Of a DNA stretch of 64,000 nt, positions 19,827 to 61,395 are shown piece after piece (position 1 is the stretch's first letter; each line of letters opens with the position of its first letter). This DNA is from a virus. Both the position numbers and the translations under genes were made by a program. The stretch is taken from IMG/VR virus record IMGVR_UViG_3300013104_000002, positions 64,001 to 128,000 of that record, one strand, 5' to 3'. The notes beneath the pieces were generated by a model that was not told the DNA's origin, did no database searches, and was given only the letters and a program-made list of their open reading frames with translations.

Positions 19827-20030
19827 TTATTCGAAGCTGTCTGTATAGTAATCAGTTTTTATTGTTTCTTTTAAAGCATTATAAATTTCTTCATCAGACA
19901 TATTATAATACTTTTTCTTAGCTGTTTTTTCTATTTGAGTTAATTTTTCTCCTGCCGAAAATCCATCATTAATAATAAATAATTCTGTAAATAATTCTAC
20001 GATTGCTCCTTGTAAATTTACGCTGTGCAT
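19827..20030 (-). CDS. Hypothetical protein
   Basis: 67 aa, coupled to its neighbours. Confidence 0.55.
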   Translation of the reverse strand: MHSVNLQGAIVELFTELFIINDGFSAGEKLTQIEKTAKKKYYNMSDEEIYNALKETIKTDYYTDSFE

Positions 20031-20332
20031 TGTCCTGTGATTTTAATGATTCCTATTTTTTGATTTTTGTAACGGATTTCCATAACTTTTGAAACTTTTG
20101 TAGAGCATTCGTTGTAGGAAATATTAACTTTTTGAGTGTTTTTGTCTATTATTTTCTTTTCGCTAACTGAGCATTGGCAAGTTGGAACTACGTCTAATAA
20201 ACTTGAATCTTCTATTCCTGTTATTAGCAAATCTATAGAGGATTGACCTTTTTTAAATGTTCCAAAGTCTATTGTATAATTTCCATTCTCCTCGTAGAAA
20301 TTAAATTTTTCTGTTGTGTTTTTTATTTTCAT
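20018..20332 (-). CDS. Ig-like (DUF1573-like) protein
   Basis: IDFG...VVPTCQCS...I.I.Y...I.ITG pattern. Confidence 0.55.
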   Translation of the reverse strand: MKIKNTTEKFNFYEENGNYTIDFGTFKKGQSSIDLLITGIEDSSLLDVVPTCQCSVSEKKIIDKNTQKVNISYNECSTKVSKVMEIRYKNQKIGIIKITGQCTA

Positions 20333-20344
20333 TTTTTACTTATT

Positions 20345-20632
20345 TTAATCCCAATACCCTTTTTCACAATTATCTTCCATCAAAATTTTATAATAAATAC
20401 TACAAGACGAGCAAAAAGTACAGTTACCTAAAACATCATCTTCAGATTTCCCTGTAATCCAAGAATAAAAATCAGAAAGTTTCTTTAATATTCTTTTTTT
20501 AATTGGAATTTTTTCTACATTTAAAGAGTTAAACTCGCAACCTTTACAAATTTTTCTTTTTCGTAATGTTTCCTCATCCTCTTTAGACTTTTTGAATCTG
20601 CTTAGAATGATGATTTTTATAGTTTTAAACAT
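20345..20632 (-). CDS. Cys-rich putative zinc-binding protein
   Basis: KRKICKGC...CTFCSSC...K....C..GYW. Confidence 0.6.
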   Translation of the reverse strand: MFKTIKIIILSRFKKSKEDEETLRKRKICKGCEFNSLNVEKIPIKKRILKKLSDFYSWITGKSEDDVLGNCTFCSSCSIYYKILMEDNCEKGYWD

Positions 20633-20652
20633 AATTCTTAATTTTGATTATC

Positions 20653-20737
20653 GGCGAGAGGTACTGAGAAAAAAGTAGTGACATAACTAAGATGTCGAAA
20701 TTATTGCCTGAGCAACCTAAACATGCACTCTCTCGCT
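20653..20737 (-). ncRNA. Putative structured intergenic RNA
   Basis: Closing stem GCGAGAG(A)GTGC/GTAC-CTCTCGC on the minus strand; internal hairpins TTGC-tcag-GCAA and GACAT-cttagtt-ATGTC. Confidence 0.45.
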
Positions 20738-20742
20738 TCAAA

Positions 20743-21051
20743 TCAGTTTTCTATTTTCAATCTTTGATGCCCGCTCAACCAATGATGAAGCTGTTCTTCT
20801 GCTCTTTTATATTGTGGCGAGTTGTGGCTTTTTCTTAAGTTATCTATTTTTAACCTTTTATGGAGAAATGAACAGAATGCTCTTATGTGTATCCCCATCT
20901 TTTCTGCTTTAGGGTCTTCCAGCTTTAAAAGAATAAACTTATAAAATGCCTTGTACAAATCCTCTACTTCTTCTCTAGGCATTTTTCTTCGTTCTGCATA
21001 ACGATCTATTAAATCCTGCTCTGTATAGTATTCTATGAATCTACTTTCCAT
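20743..21051 (-). CDS. HU/IHF-like DNA-binding protein
   Basis: DLIDRYAERRKMPREEVEDLYKAF helices followed by IHIRAFCSF (HU arm-like pattern). Confidence 0.6.
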   Translation of the reverse strand: MESRFIEYYTEQDLIDRYAERRKMPREEVEDLYKAFYKFILLKLEDPKAEKMGIHIRAFCSFLHKRLKIDNLRKSHNSPQYKRAEEQLHHWLSGHQRLKIEN

Positions 21052-21401
21052 AATACGGCTAATAATGCTGTCTTATTGTTATGTATGTACAGTTTTATTA
21101 ACTGTTCGAAAATGTTGTGTAACTCTTTTCCGTTTCTGTGGTCTTTATTTATTAGAATTCCTTTGTCAGATAATCTTTTTATCAATTGACCATAATTTTC
21201 TTTGGAAGTTTTGTAATTTATAAGGAATCTTTTTTTAGACTGTTCATTTACTCCTCCGCTTGCTAATAGTTCACATAATAAATCCAGTTCCCTGGCTGTA
21301 ACATCAGCAAAATTAAATATACAGACTGTTTGTACAATCTGCCTTATTGCAACTTCTTTATTTTCAGAACTAATTAACGAGATACAGTCTTTATTATTCA
21401 T
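21033..21401 (-). CDS. Putative winged-helix DNA-binding protein
   Basis: VTARELDLL...SKENYGQLIKRLSDKGIL. Confidence 0.5.
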   Translation of the reverse strand: MNNKDCISLISSENKEVAIRQIVQTVCIFNFADVTARELDLLCELLASGGVNEQSKKRFLINYKTSKENYGQLIKRLSDKGILINKDHRNGKELHNIFEQLIKLYIHNNKTALLAVLWKVDS

Positions 21402-21690
21402 TGATCTTACAGAATATTCTTTTTGCAGTAGGTAGTGAATATGTGTCTTTTACTATACCAAAACCTTCTATTTTTATTTCTGGGTCTAATCCATTTTGAT
21501 TTACTAAAATAAAATCTCCTTCTTTTATTTCCAATTGCTGTCTTCCTACTTTTATAACTTCAAATCTACGTAGACCTTGTTTTTCATGGGGCATGTTACT
21601 ATTACTCCATATATCATTTTCTATTTTTGATTCTAACTTACTTAACTTAAAGACAATTTCTTCACCTAAAAAATCTAATTTATCTATCAT
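21394..21690 (-). CDS. groES: GroES-like co-chaperonin
   Basis: 98 aa; L.FLGEEIV...FEVIKVG....EIKEGDFILV resembles Cpn10. Confidence 0.65.
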   Translation of the reverse strand: MIDKLDFLGEEIVFKLSKLESKIENDIWSNSNMPHEKQGLRRFEVIKVGRQQLEIKEGDFILVNQNGLDPEIKIEGFGIVKDTYSLPTAKRIFCKINE

Positions 21691-22052
21691 CTCTTTTTAA
21701 ATTGCTGTGTTTTAATATATTTAAATGCGCGTTCTTGCTTGTAATTATATGATCTGCGTTTAGTTAATTTATCTTCCCAGTAATTAGGATCTTCTTGTAT
21801 TTTAGTAACCATGTTAACTATTTTTTTTCGTATAGGTCTAACATAATATCCGTGAAAACTTGTTCGATAAATCTGTTTTATGTCTGTTTTGTAGAAAAAT
21901 ACTAGTAACCTTCTATTTTCGTAATCATTTAAAAGGCAAACTATAACTCCTTCAAATCTTAAAATAATCATTCCTTTTTTCTTTGATCGGCGTATCATTC
22001 TGTGAGTATAACCAAGAAGAAAGTAAAGATATTTATAATATTTTTCTAACAT
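21687..22052 (-). CDS. Basic hypothetical protein
   Basis: 121 aa; first gene of the minus-strand block. Confidence 0.5.
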   Translation of the reverse strand: MLEKYYKYLYFLLGYTHRMIRRSKKKGMIILRFEGVIVCLLNDYENRRLLVFFYKTDIKQIYRTSFHGYYVRPIRKKIVNMVTKIQEDPNYWEDKLTKRRSYNYKQERAFKYIKTQQFKKR

Positions 22053-22069
22053 TTTTATTCTTTATATTG

Positions 22070-22102
22070 CAAATATAAGGTACTTATTTGATATCTCTAC
22101 AA
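22070..22102 (-). promoter_or_regulatory. Bacteroidota sigma70-type promoter for the late block
   Basis: Minus strand TTG...TATATTTG about 18 nt before the ATG at 22052. Confidence 0.65.
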
Positions 22103-22239
22103 TTTTTTATGTTATATTTTTGTTAAACTTTTATTTTTCATTTAAAATTCATTTTTTGGGTCGAAAGTTTTGACAAATAATCTAATAGATTTGGAGGTTA
22201 AAAAAATATTTTGTAATTTAGCGGACTAAAGAAAGAAAA

Positions 22240-22527
22240 ATGTATTATCAGGAAGAACAAAATTTAAGGAGCAGATTAGGATATTCAGAATTTAACGAGA
22301 TATTTTATGAGCTCTTAGATACTTATATAACAACATCATTGGTGCATGTAGAAGCAAATAAAGAGTTTTATGATGATGTAATTTTTAAGATGTTTGATGT
22401 TTATCAAAGAGATAACAAAGAATATTCAGTTAAAGAATTAGTTTTATTTTTCCATATATTTCTTCACTCAATGTTTAAAAATAAACCAAGTACAGATAGA
22501 AATGAAGATGAAATAACTTTAATTTAA
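22240..22527 (+). CDS. Hypothetical protein
   Basis: 95 aa; first gene of the plus-strand block. Confidence 0.6.
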   Translation: MYYQEEQNLRSRLGYSEFNEIFYELLDTYITTSLVHVEANKEFYDDVIFKMFDVYQRDNKEYSVKELVLFFHIFLHSMFKNKPSTDRNEDEITLI

Positions 22528-22588
22528 AAATAAATTTGGAAGTTACAATTTAATTTCGTATCTTCGCGCATGTAAAGATGAAAGTTAG

Positions 22589-22706
22589 TATTTATATTAG
22601 TTGTGACGATTTAATATAAGTAGAAAAAATATAAAAAGAAAAGTCCTTTAGAGAATCAAAAAGCAATTATCGTCACCCTGAATTGCTGGTTCTTTAGAGG
22701 CTTTCT
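22589..22706 (+). promoter_or_regulatory. Two-hairpin kissing-loop RNA leader
   Basis: Hairpin 22589-22622 has loop TTGTGACGAT; hairpin 22640-22704 has loop ATCGTCACCCTG; the loops are complementary over 8 bp. Confidence 0.65.
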
Positions 22707-22717
22707 CATTTTATACT

Positions 22718-23656
22718 ATGAACAAAATATTTAGATTACCATCAAGGCTTTTTTATGACCTATGGGACAAGGGAAATAACTTCTCTGGTCTTACTGGCGA
22801 AAAGCTTATTGCGGTATACTCTATTTTAAAAAGTTCGAGAGAAAAAGAAGTAAAATATTATTCATATAAATCAAAAAACAATAAAATAATTAGTGGTTAC
22901 TCTTTATTAAGAGCAAAGACTAATTTAAGTCTACATGTAATTCAAAAATATGTTCCTGTTTTAATTGAAATGGGACTATGTTTTATTGATAAAAATGGAG
23001 ATTTTGTTTTACTGGGTAATGAAAAGGTAAAAGAATTATATAACTGTACTAAATTAGTTCCTATTCGTATAGGAAGAAATTTAATTGATACGGCGGATAA
23101 TATTTTATCTGTTAAACTTTTTGCAGCCGAAAAACAACAAAAATTACAATACAAAAAAAGACTAACTCGAAGTGAAATTATAAAGCAAGGGGTTGATCCA
23201 AAAAATTCACAACAATTGAAGAAAGCTCAATCTGTTTTGAAAAGATTTGGTGATATTACTAATTTAAACGAGAAAACTGTTTTATCTGTAGAGGGATTTG
23301 CTGTTCTTAAACATGGCGCGGAAAATAATTTAAAAAATATTAAATCAAGCGGTAATTACATTAAAAGAAAACTTAAAATTAAGGGGCTTGTTAAAACTAA
23401 AAGACAATTTGAAAAAATACAAAAAATGTCTTATGAAGATTATCTTAATTTTAAAAAATTAGGAATGCTAACTTATAGACATACCTATTCAAATGGTTTC
23501 TTAGTAGAAGAAAAAATTTCATCGTTTTCACCTGTTGATTTAATTACTACAAAAGAAGAAAAAATAGTTGAACCTGTTATTATTAAATCTGAATACAATA
23601 ATAAGCCTTATTTAGAGTTTGATATGATTGGGTTCTGGATTAACGGAAAAGGATAA
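22718..23656 (+). CDS. Basic DNA-binding protein with two HTH-like regions (possible replication initiator)
   Basis: 312 aa, K-rich; LLRAKTNLSLHVIQKYVPVLIEMGL and SSGNYIKRKLKIKGLV look winged-helix-like; own promoter and structured leader. Confidence 0.45.
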   Translation: MNKIFRLPSRLFYDLWDKGNNFSGLTGEKLIAVYSILKSSREKEVKYYSYKSKNNKIISGYSLLRAKTNLSLHVIQKYVPVLIEMGLCFIDKNGDFVLLGNEKVKELYNCTKLVPIRIGRNLIDTADNILSVKLFAAEKQQKLQYKKRLTRSEIIKQGVDPKNSQQLKKAQSVLKRFGDITNLNEKTVLSVEGFAVLKHGAENNLKNIKSSGNYIKRKLKIKGLVKTKRQFEKIQKMSYEDYLNFKKLGMLTYRHTYSNGFLVEEKISSFSPVDLITTKEEKIVEPVIIKSEYNNKPYLEFDMIGFWINGKG

Positions 23657-23718
23657 AGCGTACCCTTGCTTTAAGTAGGTATAAAGTTTTTCCACGGACT
23701 ATAAAAAACTTAAATAAA

Positions 23719-23750
23719 TTTGCATATTAAAAATAAATATATTATATTTG
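23719..23750 (+). promoter_or_regulatory. Bacteroidota promoter
   Basis: TTTG-N20-TATATTTG. Confidence 0.8.
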
Positions 23751-23765
23751 CTTAAAATAAATAAT

Positions 23766-24239
23766 ATGAAAATAGAATATAAAAAAGACGGAATACAAAT
23801 AGGAAAAGAATTTTTTAGTTTAGAGAATATTACTAAGAAATGTAATGAAGTAAAAGTAAATGAACAGGAATTAGTCATTTTAACTATGGGATGGGAAGGA
23901 AGAGGAGGAAACGCTTACGAACAAAGAGTGTTACCTTTAAAAAATGCTTTAGAATTACAATCTATTTTACTAGACAGAGAAGTTTATTTTGGAGAAATTT
24001 GGGGAAAACACTCCGAAGTTTATGGAGATATGTGTAAAGACACTTTTGAAATAGAGAGAAATGAAAATGAAGTAAAAAAGTTTTTGAAAAGTCATCCTAG
24101 TGGAGTTGATTATAATCATAGCTTTATCGATACTTATACTAATAGAATAATGGAATATTTAGACGAAGATCCCGATAGTTTGCAAGAAGATGAGAATGAA
24201 GAATTAGTAGATAAAATTTACTCATTATTAAATTACTAA
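23766..24239 (+). CDS. Hypothetical protein
   Basis: Contains VYFGEIWGKHSEVYG; the ATG at 23766 lies downstream of the promoter. Confidence 0.65.
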   Translation: MKIEYKKDGIQIGKEFFSLENITKKCNEVKVNEQELVILTMGWEGRGGNAYEQRVLPLKNALELQSILLDREVYFGEIWGKHSEVYGDMCKDTFEIERNENEVKKFLKSHPSGVDYNHSFIDTYTNRIMEYLDEDPDSLQEDENEELVDKIYSLLNY

Positions 24240-24240
24240 A

Positions 24241-24540
24241 ATGTTATATAAGAGAGAAGAGTGGAAACAATATAGTGAAAGACTAAAATCCTGGAATTAT
24301 ACAGAAGAAGAAATAGAAGATATAAGAGAGGTTAGAGAAAATTTAGATAATTGTCCAGACGATCAATTTAAAGAACTTGTAGCGCAAGGAGTAGTAGTTA
24401 GAACGCGTAAATTAAAAAAGAAAAGAAATTACTACGTAAACGAGGAGGGTCAGTTCTTGTATTTAGACAGTTATAAACGTAAATATTTAATAGCAGGGTA
24501 TTTTAAAACAGAAGATGATAACGGTAGTAAACAAGTATAA
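24241..24540 (+). CDS. Hypothetical protein
   Basis: 99 aa ORF in the operon. Confidence 0.6.
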   Translation: MLYKREEWKQYSERLKSWNYTEEEIEDIREVRENLDNCPDDQFKELVAQGVVVRTRKLKKKRNYYVNEEGQFLYLDSYKRKYLIAGYFKTEDDNGSKQV

Positions 24541-29739: not shown

Positions 29740-30444
29740 ATGAGAGAGTTAAAAAATGACATTCATTACAAAATCACTTTAGACGAAGATCAAAAATTAG
29801 TTAAATCTGATATTTATGATAAAGAAATTGTTGTGATTTCAGGAAGAGCAGGATCAGGTAAAAGTTTAGTAGTTGCACAAACGGTACTTGATTTAATTTT
29901 TAAAGGATACGTAGATAAGGTGTATGTAACCCGTGCAGCAGTTGAGGTTGGTAAAAGTTTAGGATTTCTTCCTGGTGAGCTTTCTTCAAAATTCGATCCC
30001 TATATTGAGGCATTTAGAGATAATTTATATGCGTGTTATGATAAGAATAAAGTTGATAAGCATCTTACTCATCTAAGTGGAGGTGAAGAAAATAAAGACA
30101 AAAATGCTAATAAAACTACAGTTGCAAAAATTGAAGGTATACCAACACAATATATCCGAGGAAAAACAATAGGGAACAGAGAGGTATTAGTAATAGAAGA
30201 AGGTCAAAATTTAACTGAGTTTGAAATGGAGGCTTTATTAACTCGCCTAGGAAAAGGAGGTAGAATTGTAATTAATGGAGATAATGCACAAAAAGATATC
30301 AGAGAAACTTATACTGGATTAGATTTTGCTATAGAATTAGCTAAAAATATTGAAGGCATTGCTTATCATAAATTGAAATCAAATCACAGGTCAGATTTAG
30401 TTGGTAAAATACTAGATTATAAATATAATAAAGTTTCTAAATAA
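29740..30444 (+). CDS. phoH: PhoH family ATPase
   Basis: GRAGSGKS, VTRAAVE, LGFLPG, YIRGKT, IEEGQN, LTRLG, NGD.AQ.D, HRS. Confidence 0.95.
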   Translation: MRELKNDIHYKITLDEDQKLVKSDIYDKEIVVISGRAGSGKSLVVAQTVLDLIFKGYVDKVYVTRAAVEVGKSLGFLPGELSSKFDPYIEAFRDNLYACYDKNKVDKHLTHLSGGEENKDKNANKTTVAKIEGIPTQYIRGKTIGNREVLVIEEGQNLTEFEMEALLTRLGKGGRIVINGDNAQKDIRETYTGLDFAIELAKNIEGIAYHKLKSNHRSDLVGKILDYKYNKVSK

Positions 30445-34509: not shown

Positions 34510-36072
34510 ATGAAGCCGAATAATATATTAATTGACGATCAAAAATTACTAGATGAAGGGTTTATGTTATCTTGTTATGCTATTCAAAGGACGTTAGGAG
34601 CAGAAGGAAGATTAGCTTTATTGGATAATGTAGATAAATTACCAAAATCAACCAAAGATGGTGTTGGAATTATTAGGCACATTAGATTTCCTAATAAAAC
34701 AATGAATTTTGGAGCATTACAGGCTATTGCTGGCTCTCTAAGAACATTAGAATTATGTGGAGATGCAACTACTACGACAGCTGTCTTTATGTTGGGTTAC
34801 ATGAAAAACATAAAAAGAAAGTATTTTAATAAAGCAGTTGAGAGAGGCATTCATATTGGAGTCAAGGAAGCTTATGAACACTTAGATATGTTATCAAAAA
34901 CAGCTACTCCAAATGACTTGCTTAGAATAGCCAGGGTTGCGTGTAATAATGATGAAAAATTAGCCAATACTTTAATAGAGGCTTTTGATTATGCAGGAGA
35001 AGATGGAGTAGTAAGCTATTCAGTAAAAGAAAATAAAGAATTTACGGAGTTTGTAGCAAGAGATGGAATGTTTTTAGACACTCATGGTTATACAAGTCCC
35101 TTTTTTATTAATAAAGAAGATAAACAAGCTTGTTTTGAAGGAGAGAAAGTTGCTGTCATATGTAGTGCAACGTGGGAATACTCTCAACACATAATTAATC
35201 AAATCCAATTATTCTATAGTCAAAATATTCCAAGATCTACACCTCTTATAGTGTTTATTGAAAGATCTAACTCTGATATGACTGAAAAACTAGTTTCTTT
35301 AAAGGAAGTAGGATTTAATATATGTTTAGTTGCAACTAGTGGATATGATGAATTTGAAAGTGAAACCCTTTTAAACGATGTGGCTAATTTTACAGGAGCT
35401 TCAGTTTACAATCCTAGGAATCCAGATTCAAAAGTAATCTTTGGGGTAGCAGATAAAATATGTGTTACCTTAGAAAACACCAGCATTGTAGTAAATGATG
35501 TTCCAAAAATATTTAAAGAAAGTTTAGAAAAATTAGAAAAATCTGAAAAACCAGACCCGAGACGTATAAAAAGATTAAAAACAAGAGCTGCTATAATTGA
35601 AGTAGGAGGTTTAAACTTACAAAATGCAGTGGAGATTGGAGACAGAATCGAAGATGGTATTGGAGCTATAAAAAGTGCTAAAAAAAGTGGTTTTGTTGTA
35701 GGAGGAGGAGCTGCTCTAGTCTTTATCAGTAATCTAATGACTAAAAGAATTAACAACAAGGAGGAACAAAGAGGATACGACTTAGTAAAAACTGTACTTA
35801 AACAACCTATGTTAGCCATCCTGGAAAACTCTAATAGAAAACAGCCTAAATTTTATGAGTTCTGGAAGAAAGACTATTTAGGTGAGGCTATGAAAAAATA
35901 TGGAAGGGGTTATAATGCTATTACTGATGAAATTACTAATTTATTAGATGATGGTATTATTGACAGTAAATATTCTTTAAAAGTAGCATTGGAGTCAGCT
36001 ACGGAAAGGGCAATACAGCAGTTAAATACAAGTATTATTATACACTTTCCAGAAAATCAAAGTTTAGATTAA
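34510..36072 (+). CDS. groEL: GroEL-like chaperonin
   Basis: TLGAEGR, STKDGV, GDATTT, ACNND, DRIEDG, GFVVGGGAAL, GYNA and GIID motifs. Confidence 0.93.
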   Translation: MKPNNILIDDQKLLDEGFMLSCYAIQRTLGAEGRLALLDNVDKLPKSTKDGVGIIRHIRFPNKTMNFGALQAIAGSLRTLELCGDATTTTAVFMLGYMKNIKRKYFNKAVERGIHIGVKEAYEHLDMLSKTATPNDLLRIARVACNNDEKLANTLIEAFDYAGEDGVVSYSVKENKEFTEFVARDGMFLDTHGYTSPFFINKEDKQACFEGEKVAVICSATWEYSQHIINQIQLFYSQNIPRSTPLIVFIERSNSDMTEKLVSLKEVGFNICLVATSGYDEFESETLLNDVANFTGASVYNPRNPDSKVIFGVADKICVTLENTSIVVNDVPKIFKESLEKLEKSEKPDPRRIKRLKTRAAIIEVGGLNLQNAVEIGDRIEDGIGAIKSAKKSGFVVGGGAALVFISNLMTKRINNKEEQRGYDLVKTVLKQPMLAILENSNRKQPKFYEFWKKDYLGEAMKKYGRGYNAITDEITNLLDDGIIDSKYSLKVALESATERAIQQLNTSIIIHFPENQSLD

Positions 36073-38859: not shown

Positions 38860-39612
38860 ATGATTAAAACAAATTTTACTTACACAGATACAGAAGATTA
38901 CAAAACATGGATTAGTTTTTATCCAAAAAGAAATAAAGGAACAGGATTTTATTTATGTTATGAAAATAATGGATATTTTGATCCTAGACCTCAAATAAAT
39001 ACTAACGTAACAACTCTGGTAAGTCTAGTATTGCCATTTATCAGTTTATGGCTGATACCAATTACGATTATCTTATGGTTTTATTCTTGGGGAAGTCTGT
39101 ATATTCATTTACCTTACGATACAGGTAGAAATAATACAGCAGAATCTAAAACTTATGGTTTGATGTTTTATCATATAGATTCTGGATTTCCTAATCAAAT
39201 GTGGTTTAGACATTGGAAATCTTTTGACTTTCCTTGGGCTTATAAATTCCACAAAAGAGAAGTGTTACACAAAGATGGTTGGTACACAGAACAAAAAGGA
39301 GATAATTTATGGGACAAAGAATTTTGGAAAGATCATCTTGTTGTAAATACATACCCTTATACTTACACTCTAAAATCTGGTGAAAAACAAAATACAACAG
39401 CCGAAATTTACGAAGAAAAAAGAACTTGGAAAAGATGGTTTGGATTATCTAAAATGACAAGACATTATATAGAAGTAGAATTCAAGGATGAATTAGGTGA
39501 AAGAGCAGGTAGCTGGAAGGGAGGCGTTATTTCAACAAGCCATTCGCTGAATAAAAATGAAACAGCTTTAGAATGTCTAAGAAGAATGGAAAATGAGAGA
39601 AAGTTTAATTAA
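38860..39612 (+). CDS. Hypothetical membrane-associated protein
   Basis: 250 aa with one TM region; C-terminal GERAGSWKGG. Confidence 0.6.
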   Translation: MIKTNFTYTDTEDYKTWISFYPKRNKGTGFYLCYENNGYFDPRPQINTNVTTLVSLVLPFISLWLIPITIILWFYSWGSLYIHLPYDTGRNNTAESKTYGLMFYHIDSGFPNQMWFRHWKSFDFPWAYKFHKREVLHKDGWYTEQKGDNLWDKEFWKDHLVVNTYPYTYTLKSGEKQNTTAEIYEEKRTWKRWFGLSKMTRHYIEVEFKDELGERAGSWKGGVISTSHSLNKNETALECLRRMENERKFN

Positions 39613-60591: not shown

Positions 60592-60622
60592 TTTGGTAAA
60601 TTAAAAAATAGTATTAACTTTG
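60592..60622 (+). promoter_or_regulatory. Bacteroidota promoter
   Basis: TTTG-N19-TAACTTTG. Confidence 0.7.
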
Positions 60623-60639
60623 ACAAAATTATAAAAGAT

Positions 60640-61395
60640 ATGAAACTAAGTAAACCACTTATTTACCACGATTTAGAAACGACTGGTGTATCAACAGAAA
60701 ATGATCGTATAGTTGAAATAGCAGCAATTAAGTATTTTCCAGATGGAAGTACAGAGGAAAAACATTTTTTAATTAATCCTGAAATACCTATCCCTTTGGG
60801 GGCAGCAGAAGTGCATGGAATAACAGACGATAAAATTAAAGACGCACCTACATTCAAACAGTTAGCGGTATCTATGAGATCTTGGTTCGATGGATGCGAT
60901 TTAGCAGGTTATAATTCAGACCGTTTTGATGTTTTACTTTTGTCAGCAGAATTTGAGCGCGCAGGACTAGAAGGAATAACTTGGAATCCTGCATTGTTAG
61001 ATATTTTCACAATGTATAGAAAATTATTTCCTAATACGTTATCAGATGTTTACAAAAGATTGACAGGAAAAGTACTTGAAGGTGCTCACGGAGCTATCAA
61101 TGACATAAGATCAACTAAAGAAATAGCAGATATTTTAATTCCAAGTATGATTGAATTATCTGAAACACCTTTGGAAACTGTTGTTGATTTTGATAATTAC
61201 ATGCAGGGTAGTAATAAGAGGTATGATCTTGCGGGAAAGCTATATAAAGATGAAGAAGGGGTTGTTAGGTACAACTTTGGTAAGGATTTAGGTAAATCAG
61301 TTAAAGAGTTCCCTGGCTTCGGTCAATGGATGTTAAACCAATCTTTCCCCCAAGAGACAAAAAATAAATTAAAAGAACTAATATATAATAAATAA
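60640..61395 (+). CDS. DEDDh 3'-5' exonuclease (DnaQ-like)
   Basis: DLETTG, VHGITD, GYN..RFD, AHGA.ND; C-terminal NFGK..G motif. Confidence 0.92.
   Translation: MKLSKPLIYHDLETTGVSTENDRIVEIAAIKYFPDGSTEEKHFLINPEIPIPLGAAEVHGITDDKIKDAPTFKQLAVSMRSWFDGCDLAGYNSDRFDVLLLSAEFERAGLEGITWNPALLDIFTMYRKLFPNTLSDVYKRLTGKVLEGAHGAINDIRSTKEIADILIPSMIELSETPLETVVDFDNYMQGSNKRYDLAGKLYKDEEGVVRYNFGKDLGKSVKEFPGFGQWMLNQSFPQETKNKLKELIYNK

Follow-up and report, generated by a model that had tools for sequence, protein, structure and literature searches.

The window analysed here, a 64,000-nt stretch with a GC content of 30%, corresponds to bases 64001-128000 of a virus record of 146,490 bp that is complete and carries direct terminal repeats; the source is an uncultured, 146-kb phage of Bacteroidota type. 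On the - strand, large genes of unknown family extend to position 22052, and a block of + strand genes starts at 22240, encoding among its products a RecA/UvsX-like recombinase, PhoH, a GroEL-like chaperonin, an Acb3-like protein and an RNase T-type exonuclease. The element that concerns us lies between a 95-aa open reading frame (22240-22527) and the gene for a 312-aa protein. Cultured phages gave no match, either to the region 22000-24300 by blastn or to the 312-aa protein by tblastn, and a pattern scan of bacterial genomes found no relative of this protein and identified no host or prophage. The phages carrying the element appear to be virulent, given the 146-kb genome with direct terminal repeats and the lack of a relative of the protein in those bacterial genomes.

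No sequence match to the 312-aa protein was found in Pfam, PHROG or the PDB; its 88 homologues, all unnamed, come from metagenomes. An AlphaFold2 model (pLDDT 87) has a long helix between two winged-helix domains, and searches with this fold return generic winged-helix matches only (Foldseek E 0.045 or worse, VIA-align Z at most 6.9), among them LexA (the best, Z 6.9), MukF, ScpA, ORC2, TFE and the pSK41 initiator 4pta (Z 5.7). The Atlas gave only weak leads, to HTH_36 and to phage replisome-organiser folds (Phage_rep_org_N). By its modelled fold the protein is a two-winged-helix DNA-binding protein, and a role in replication is possible. An earlier note on this DNA had spoken of a putative replication/DNA-binding gene; the DNA-binding part is supported by the winged-helix fold of the model, but the element upstream is not specific to replication genes, as a copy of it precedes an HNH endonuclease gene in a related phage. 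For comparison, 28 homologue loci were taken from viral and metagenome contigs and yielded 22 distinct upstream regions.

The features of the element are collected in Table 1. Hairpin 2 is divided into an outer stem (22640-22657/22688-22704) and an inner stem (22662-22668/22681-22687), with bulges of a single T at 22644 and of AAAA at 22658-22661. The two halves of the kissing helix, K1 and K2, are exact reverse complements, and the 8-mer has only these two copies in the 64-kb window. Both hairpins, the confinement of the complementary 8-mers to their loops and the ATG with its 312-aa reading frame had been described in the earlier note, and all are present as described: the 12-bp stem of hairpin 1 (HP1) was read directly and checked pair by pair, as was the interrupted stem of ~24 bp in hairpin 2, and the 8-mers were read from the sequence.

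Table 1. Features of the leader and of the gene that follows it; positions are those of the 64-kb window.
Feature	Position	Strand	Remarks
-33 element TTTG	22535..22538	+	Bacteroidota sigma-A-type; 20 nt 5' of the -7 box
-7 box TATCTTCG	22559..22566	+	1 mismatch to TAnnTTTG
Hairpin 1 (HP1)	22589-22600/22611-22622	+	12-bp stem with 2 G-U; 10-nt loop TTGTGACGAT
K1, 5' half of kissing helix, GTGACGAT	22603..22610	+	Flush with 3' arm of HP1
A-rich linker AAAAAATATAAAAAG	22624..22638	+	Conserved in most leaders; family consensus AAAATATAAAGAAG
Hairpin 2 (T)	22640-22668/22681-22704	+	24 bp (4+13+7), terminator-like; loop ATCGTCACCCTG
K2, 3' half of kissing helix, ATCGTCAC	22669..22676	+	Flush with 5' arm of inner stem
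3' loop bridge CCTG, unpaired	22677..22680	+	YUUYA(G) in most relatives (alignment A8, columns 118-121)
U-rich tail/pre-AUG region CTCATTTTATACT	22705..22717	+	Forms the U-tract together with 22702-22704
Gene for 312-aa protein	22718..23656	+	Two predicted winged-helix domains (~3-117, 191-272), long helix 122-159 between them

Folded as RNA, the + strand reaches -34.5 kcal/mol (z = -3.7), a value equalled by none of 200 shuffles, against z = -1.5 for the - strand. HP1 contributes -6.2 kcal/mol and the core of hairpin 2 -22 kcal/mol, which becomes -27.5 kcal/mol when its base is extended: in the minimum-energy folds, linker bases 22630-22636 pair with 22709-22715 in the pre-AUG U-rich tail, and the extended base ends ~3 nt before the AUG. 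The K duplex itself is worth -11 kcal/mol, and a fold with the K helix in place of the hairpins gets no lower than -18.5 kcal/mol compared with -34.5 kcal/mol. The hairpins are thus far stabler than the K-only fold, and the kiss adds to both of them rather than competing with them. Across the leaders the unpaired bridges are short, with 1-2 nt 5' of K1 and 4-6 nt, commonly YUUYAG, 3' of K2, a loop layout that would suit the geometry of a stacked kissing complex. K2 occupies the apical loop ~42 nt 5' of the AUG, away from the start region.

The promoter-like sequence that the earlier note placed at ~22535-22566 is of the right type, since its TTTG and, 20 nt further on, its TATCTTCG align with the consensus boxes of relatives. 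Consensus boxes (TTTG and TATCTTTG) are arranged as in the window in the homologous loci L008, L014 and L005, and the matching -7 position in homologous loci is occupied by TATCTTTG or TATATTTG. As the Bacteroidota consensus TAnnTTTG is placed at -12 to -5 (PMC9723704), transcription is predicted to start near 22571, ~147 nt 5' of the ATG. Further intergenic sites of the form TTTG-N17-22-TAnnTTTG are present in the window. In most homologous loci, consensus Bacteroidota promoters mapped by motif lie 115-203 nt 5' of the ATG. K1 in the window begins at about +33 of the predicted transcript, within HP1; in L006, L009, L024 and L025 its first base is +1 to +3.

Comparison of the homologous leaders provides the principal evidence for the fold. 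In all 22 distinct loci a segment lying 50-75 nt upstream can pair over 7-15 bp with the apical loop of whichever hairpin comes last before the ATG, and the 22 complements have 22 different sequences, for example GTGACATT/AATGTCAC, ACTAGGAATC/GATTCCTAGT, GATCTAAACTCT/AGAGTTTAGATC and GAGGCGGA/TCCGCCTC. Even from a crude MAFFT alignment RNAalifold chose the K helix unaided, with 8/8 pairs covarying. Because the MAFFT alignment of the leaders is structurally inconsistent, it was replaced by alignments to a covariance model, built iteratively from the two hairpins only, and the K helix was added as a pseudoknot for counting. In the alignment so obtained (A8, 18 leaders), 83.7% of cells are paired compared with 59.4% after shuffling, 41 of the 44 pairs have changed on both sides, and the covariation score is 0.60 compared with 0.20; none of 500 shuffles attains any observed measure. 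When the partners are slid by 1-3 columns as a control, 34-53% of cells are paired. Changes on both sides are found in every helix (HP1 11/12, K helix 8/8, hairpin 2 22/24), and the result for the K helix is no fitting artefact, because its columns were left unpaired in the covariance model. A shuffle test of loops against upstream sequence, in which the loops were taken from minimum-energy folds, proved noisy, with spurious pairs inside loops, and is not relied on. We conclude that the leader is a real folded RNA whose structure is strongly supported. The earlier note had proposed a search for covarying loop sequences upstream of homologues as a check on its reading, and such sequences are what the 22 loci contain.

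The stems also reveal the strand on which the structure is selected. They contain 61 G-U against 9 A-C pairs, so the selected structure must be + strand RNA, or + strand ssDNA, and not duplex DNA or a - strand transcript; the K helix, for its part, is almost purely Watson-Crick. A cis-encoded, structured leader RNA, as the earlier note had envisaged, is therefore found on the + strand, with its loop-loop pairing conserved by covariation.

The same observations bear on the analogy, drawn in the earlier note, with the IncI/IncB plasmids, in which loop-loop pseudoknots control rep translation. Under a countertranscript scheme of the IncI-alpha/IncB, pT181 or pIP501 type, an antisense RNA transcribed from the - strand across hairpin 2 would bind K2 in competition with K1, and the result would decide translation or termination of a replication gene. 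The strictly Watson-Crick character of the K helix would fit such a scheme, as would the reverse complement of hairpin 2, which has a T-rich run behind it (complementary to the linker) and could end a - strand RNA; boxes resembling TAnnTTTG are indeed present on the - strand at +14 to +35 in 7/22 loci. In the other 15 loci, the window included, they are absent, however, and where they do occur they overlap N-terminal codons rich in lysine and isoleucine. The - strand folds weakly (z = -1.5), the excess of G-U over A-C places the structure on the + strand, and the leader also precedes an HNH endonuclease gene. Nor is there a conserved leader peptide: 10/22 leaders have no ATG open reading frame of at least five codons, and the reading frames of the others differ in position and sequence. 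A 13-codon reading frame that runs across HP1 in the window (22578-22619) is not conserved. With no conserved leader peptide, no consistent antisense promoter and K2 not beside the start site, the IncI/IncB mechanism is not upheld, and we regard control by a countertranscript as improbable.

Although the complementarity is always kept, the complementary sequences themselves change rapidly. The loci L003 and L004 are 97-100% identical in their flanks and coding sequence, but only 70% identical over a 40-nt patch comprising HP1 and K1, and 73% identical over an 11-nt patch at K2; all three substitutions in K are compensated, and pS in the adjacent gene is 0.088. L024 and L025, whose flanks and coding sequence are 95-100% identical (adjacent gene pS 0.038), differ at ~23 of 80 patch positions, a divergence of ~29% as summed over 20-nt identity bins. 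In L005 and L019 (adjacent gene pS 0.257) divergence is likewise concentrated in these patches, the flanks being more identical. For these three pairs of close relatives, the patches thus change ~3-8 times faster than synonymous sites, with compensation. We view the loop sequences as a private address, of which only the complementarity is conserved. The fast divergence points to diversifying selection on specificity, although separate local recombination events at the two places would also produce this patch pattern.

The leader is also found before other genes. G001, a related complete phage and the record to which L003 belongs, has three copies with three addresses. The first precedes the homologous two-winged-helix gene; the second, with loops GTGAGACG and CGTCTCAC-CCTG, precedes a gene for a 257-aa HNH endonuclease (phrog_953, E 3e-57); and the third, with the address GTAACGG/CCGTTAC, is followed by ~700 nt without an open reading frame or Rfam match. 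The upstream neighbours vary as well, being the 95-aa reading frame in the window and a tRNA cluster in L006. From these differing upstream neighbours and unrelated downstream genes we conclude that the leader is a module tied to its downstream cargo and not a rep-specific operator, a portable combination of promoter and leader used by phages of ~130-146 kb with Bacteroidota-type hosts. By the covariance model, the 146-kb genome to which the window belongs has one copy only, and scans of this genome for further kissing leaders of the same architecture gave no excess over shuffles (46 compared with 29-42, and under stricter settings 1 compared with 0-2). One candidate kissing leader on the - strand of the window, at 60601-60668, was discarded at z = -0.4, and the weak model matches L036, L037, L038, L044 and L045 proved to be coding sequence or simple terminators, without the loop complementarity.

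An explanation at the level of DNA has to be weighed against these results. In one version, K1 and K2 would be two halves of an inverted-repeat operator that the winged-helix protein recognises; in another, the hairpins would form in single-stranded DNA at a replication origin beside the divergent gene junction. Complementarity would likewise persist between half-sites that co-evolve with one protein, nearly every pair of the K helix is Watson-Crick, and the downstream protein is, from its model, a DNA binder; moreover, the minimum of the cumulative GC skew, at 84-86 kb in record coordinates, adjoins the element at 86.6 kb. This minimum is not independent evidence for an origin, however, because it coincides with the switch in gene orientation and transcription direction, and there are no iterons or notable direct repeats around the element. 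As half-sites, K1 and K2 would be separated by ~58 bp and would vary in length from 7 to 15 bp, reaching 25 bp in L024. They also occupy precisely the loops of two hairpins with covarying stems, in which G-U pairs are numerous on one strand only. The proteins of L003 and L004 differ at ~5 nonsynonymous sites, whereas their addresses differ at 3/10 positions, and paralogous leaders precede unrelated genes. The ssDNA-origin structure, which the earlier note had offered as an option, is disfavoured by the G-U excess and by the promoter and U-tract that frame the element. Altogether, a DNA-level function appears highly improbable.

Hairpin 2 has the appearance of an intrinsic terminator, a feature that the earlier note does not mention. 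Each of the 22 leaders combines a GC-rich stem base with a T-rich tail, GGGTTTTTTATTTTT in the case of L006, ending 8-20 nt before the ATG, so that each leader has the attenuator feature of a GC-rich hairpin and U-tract between promoter and start codon. The window copy, with the tail GGCTTTCTCATTTT, may be a weak terminator because its own U-tract is interrupted (TTTCTCATTTT). No conserved antiterminator helix sharing the terminator bases was found among the leaders, and neither K1 nor K2 is part of a stem. A single alternative pairing was seen, that of the 5' arm of HP1 with the linker; the window, L011 and L003 have it, whereas L010, L013 and L021 do not. Since no conserved alternative pairing shares the terminator bases, the element is not a classical two-state attenuator.

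We think it probable, if far from assured, that the element acts as a 5' mRNA leader of ~147 nt in which the kissing complex is a closed, low-expression state that throttles or delays the gene. Host RNA polymerase would initiate at the sigma-A-type promoter, near 22571, and HP1 would form in the nascent RNA. Hairpin 2 would then fold, pairing between the linker and the U-tail extending its base to ~3 nt before the AUG, and K1 would pair with K2 in the apical loop of the terminator, in an arrangement that would let the 8-bp loop-loop helix stack with HP1 and with the terminator stem. By helping a terminator with a large loop to fold in time, the kiss would cause most transcripts to stop before the AUG, and in those that read through, the complex would hold the start region base-paired. 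Occupation of K1 or K2 would alter the outcome, the candidate ligands being a phage factor or, in trans, accumulated leader RNAs of the same address. The comparisons establish the fold, its strand, covariation and position, its portability and the rapid turnover of the addresses; termination, the direction of the effect and any action in trans are inferences.

Two structural points qualify this model. In the variant leaders L024 and L025 there is no HP1; the terminator has a 35-nt loop with which the 5' end forms ~25 bp. For steric reasons such pairing and a closed terminator stem may not be able to coexist, in which case it would argue that the pairing opposes termination; this variant therefore hints at an effect of the opposite sign. 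The second point concerns the linker of 17 nt, which in an intramolecular kiss with fully extended hairpin 2 must span a long stacked helix. This is borderline, and for that reason kissing between molecules, rather than within one, is also an option.

Recognition between molecules is suggested, too, by the fast-changing and mutually orthogonal addresses, and we have therefore considered an alternative in which an RNA of ~140 nt acts in trans. Here the element would be a stand-alone small RNA of ~135-145 nt that acts through its address loops, on nascent copies or as loop-loop dimers, and serves as an RNA timer, copy-number sensor or exclusion determinant, with the gene expressed only through RNA-controlled read-through. 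The unit possesses a promoter of its own and ends in a terminator-like structure, its K helix is almost purely Watson-Crick, and addresses that outpace synonymous sites ~3-8 times with compensation are what would be expected of specificity determinants that avoid cross-talk. G001 carries three addresses on three copies, one of them without an open reading frame for ~700 nt downstream, and phage P4 offers a precedent (PMC4825925). Against this, the leader abuts the ATG in 22/22 loci, which argues for control in cis. Neither processing signals nor a tRNA-like fold were seen, Rfam C4 and all other families are without a match above chance level even at E up to 10, and lysogenic immunity is inapplicable to phages that appear virulent. 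A stand-alone small RNA thus seems to us rather unlikely.

A related possibility is that these leaders are self-addressed RNA gates. The terminated leader RNA would accumulate and, by its loop address, recognise nascent leaders in trans, pairing with none but those that carry the same address. We put this forward tentatively, as a rather unlikely reading. If true, each gated gene would have its own RNA timer or copy-number sensor, and co-infecting related phages would evade mutual control by a change of address. This would amount to antisense-style control without an antisense gene, a principle that is not known to have been described for virulent phages.

Whichever mode of action applies, the element is a compact RNA device of ~135-147 nt placed between a host-type promoter and a gene, and it has been reused, with different addresses, upstream of genes for a DNA-binding protein and for a homing endonuclease, and once before non-coding sequence. 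Bacteroidota and their phages have unusual promoters and translation signals, and gene timing in these phages is little known; the leader offers a way into their early gene control that is open to direct test, for a large group of uncultured phages from soil and rhizosphere. Should the kiss set the efficiency of the terminator, it would represent a new and easily reprogrammed way of tuning termination, useful for synthetic biology in Bacteroidota, and if action in trans is true, a novel form of timing or exclusion in phages.

Searches for a known counterpart indicate that this type of leader is uncatalogued. Over the whole window there is no match to Rfam 15 at the gathering score, and a search of 22480-22780 at E up to 10 gave three chance-level matches only, of 15-19 bits compared with thresholds of 55-90. 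Literature searches found no description of such a leader; papers on the regulatory kissing loop of cobalamin riboswitches were among those returned (for example PMC10907184 and PMC6158498). A leader or attenuator in which the tip of the terminator is held by a covarying kissing loop is thus absent from Rfam and from the literature searched, but several known systems share parts of its design.

The repZ pseudoknot of IncI-alpha/IncB plasmids, with its Inc antisense RNA, resembles the element in having long-range loop pairing within the leader of a gene whose product binds DNA and may act in replication. In the plasmids, a hairpin loop pairs beside the rep start site, which activates translation. 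Here, in contrast, there is no translationally coupled, repY-like leader peptide, the pairing partner is ~42 nt from the AUG, the second hairpin is terminator-like, no consistent antisense promoter is present and the leader is found before an HNH endonuclease gene as well, so that the analogy is only loosely apt. A different kind of likeness is offered by the pRNA of phi29, which has mutually complementary loops of which only the complementarity is conserved, and which pairs between molecules to form a ring on the packaging motor. Both RNAs have two complementary loops with complementarity alone conserved, but the present element is an mRNA leader with a terminator and does not match the Rfam pRNA family.

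In the cobalamin riboswitches, the loop of an upstream hairpin (L5) kisses that of an expression-platform hairpin (L13) carrying terminator or start-site signals. The kiss of an upstream loop with a terminator-bearing hairpin loop is common to both, although here there is no aptamer, the upstream partner being a plain hairpin or bare 5' end; the loops are hypervariable where those of the riboswitch are semi-conserved, and there is no Rfam match. The lambdoid PR'-6S RNA-tR' unit and the promoter-proximal terminators of homing endonuclease genes in T4-family phages combine a strong promoter and a short structured leader with a terminator that gates the gene. This order of promoter, leader and gating terminator recurs in the present element, as does the link with free-standing endonuclease cassettes. 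Those units are not known to have a covarying loop-loop helix that joins a 5' hairpin to the tip of the terminator, however, and no antiterminator protein was identified here.

The c4 antisense RNA of P1 and P7 (immI) is cut from a leader and pairs with sites of the same transcript. In phage P4, the CI RNA is likewise cut from a leader, and its seqB pairs with seqA and seqC on the same transcript (PMC4825925). Like the element described here, these are RNA elements in the leader of an early or replication operon that pair with sites on their own transcript. Their pairing governs premature termination or translation, as it may here, and the complementary sequences differ between close relatives while pairing is kept, as it is in 22/22 loci of the present family. 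They differ in that here both partners are in hairpin loops, one of them the apical loop of the terminator itself, and in that there is no evident processing, no match to Rfam C4 (RF01695) and a phage that looks virulent. In their logic, the P4 CI RNA and P1/P7 c4, the L5-L13 kiss of the cobalamin riboswitch and the terminator units of lambdoid late and T4-family endonuclease genes are the nearest relatives of this leader.

The leader is not confined to the two-winged-helix gene. In G001, a related complete phage, a paralogous copy with its own consensus promoter lies directly 5′ of a gene for a 257-aa HNH endonuclease, and its address, the complementary pair formed by the loops of hairpins 1 and 2, is GTGAGACG/CGTCTCAC, which differs from those of the other copies. 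A third copy in the same genome is followed by ∼700 nt in which we found no ORF of at least 50 aa and no Rfam match, and this stretch possibly holds non-coding RNA that has escaped annotation.

Features in and around the leader and its copies
Feature	Location	Strand	Remarks
Paralogous leader copy	L039:1501-1611 = G001:136660-136770	-	related phage
HNH endonuclease ORF	L039:728-1501	-	257 aa; phrog_953, E 3e-57
Third leader copy	G001:116199-116328 (with downstream region, L035:780-1630)	-	address GTAACGG/CCGTTAC
tRNA-Ser, tRNA-Asn, tRNA-Phe cluster	L006:2373-2727		related 131-kb phage
Tandem repeats	L045:1553-1633		related 18-kb contig
13-codon ORF	window 22578-22619		MKVSIYISCDDLI
CTTTAG(AG), both arms	window 22646-22653, 22692-22699		hairpin 2
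Acb3-like gene	window 38860-39612		Pfam E 9e-35
GroEL-like gene	window 34510-36072		
PhoH gene	window 29740-30444		
GC skew minimum	window ∼20000-22200		genome 84-86 kb

Within the window's leader, a 13-codon ORF runs across hairpin 1; the relatives do not conserve it, and it is therefore probably fortuitous. The word CTTTAG(AG) occurs in both arms of hairpin 2 and reappears in loop 2 of most relatives as an unpaired YUUYAG 3′ of the kissing sequence K2. It could serve as a recognition word for a protein or nuclease.

Upstream surroundings vary: directly 5′ of the leader's promoter, one relative carries a cluster of three tRNA genes at the place occupied in the window by a 95-aa ORF. In L045, a weak covariance-model match, a 21-nt unit, AAAAACCAAGCAGAATAAAT-like when read on the gene strand, is repeated in tandem 3.9 times just 5′ of the plain terminator and ATG.

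The cumulative GC skew minimum lies 0.4-0.6 kb 5′ of the leader, at the divergent junction where the minus-strand block of genes meets the plus-strand block. Other genes of the phage code for an Acb3-like inhibitor of CBASS, a chaperonin resembling GroEL, and PhoH.
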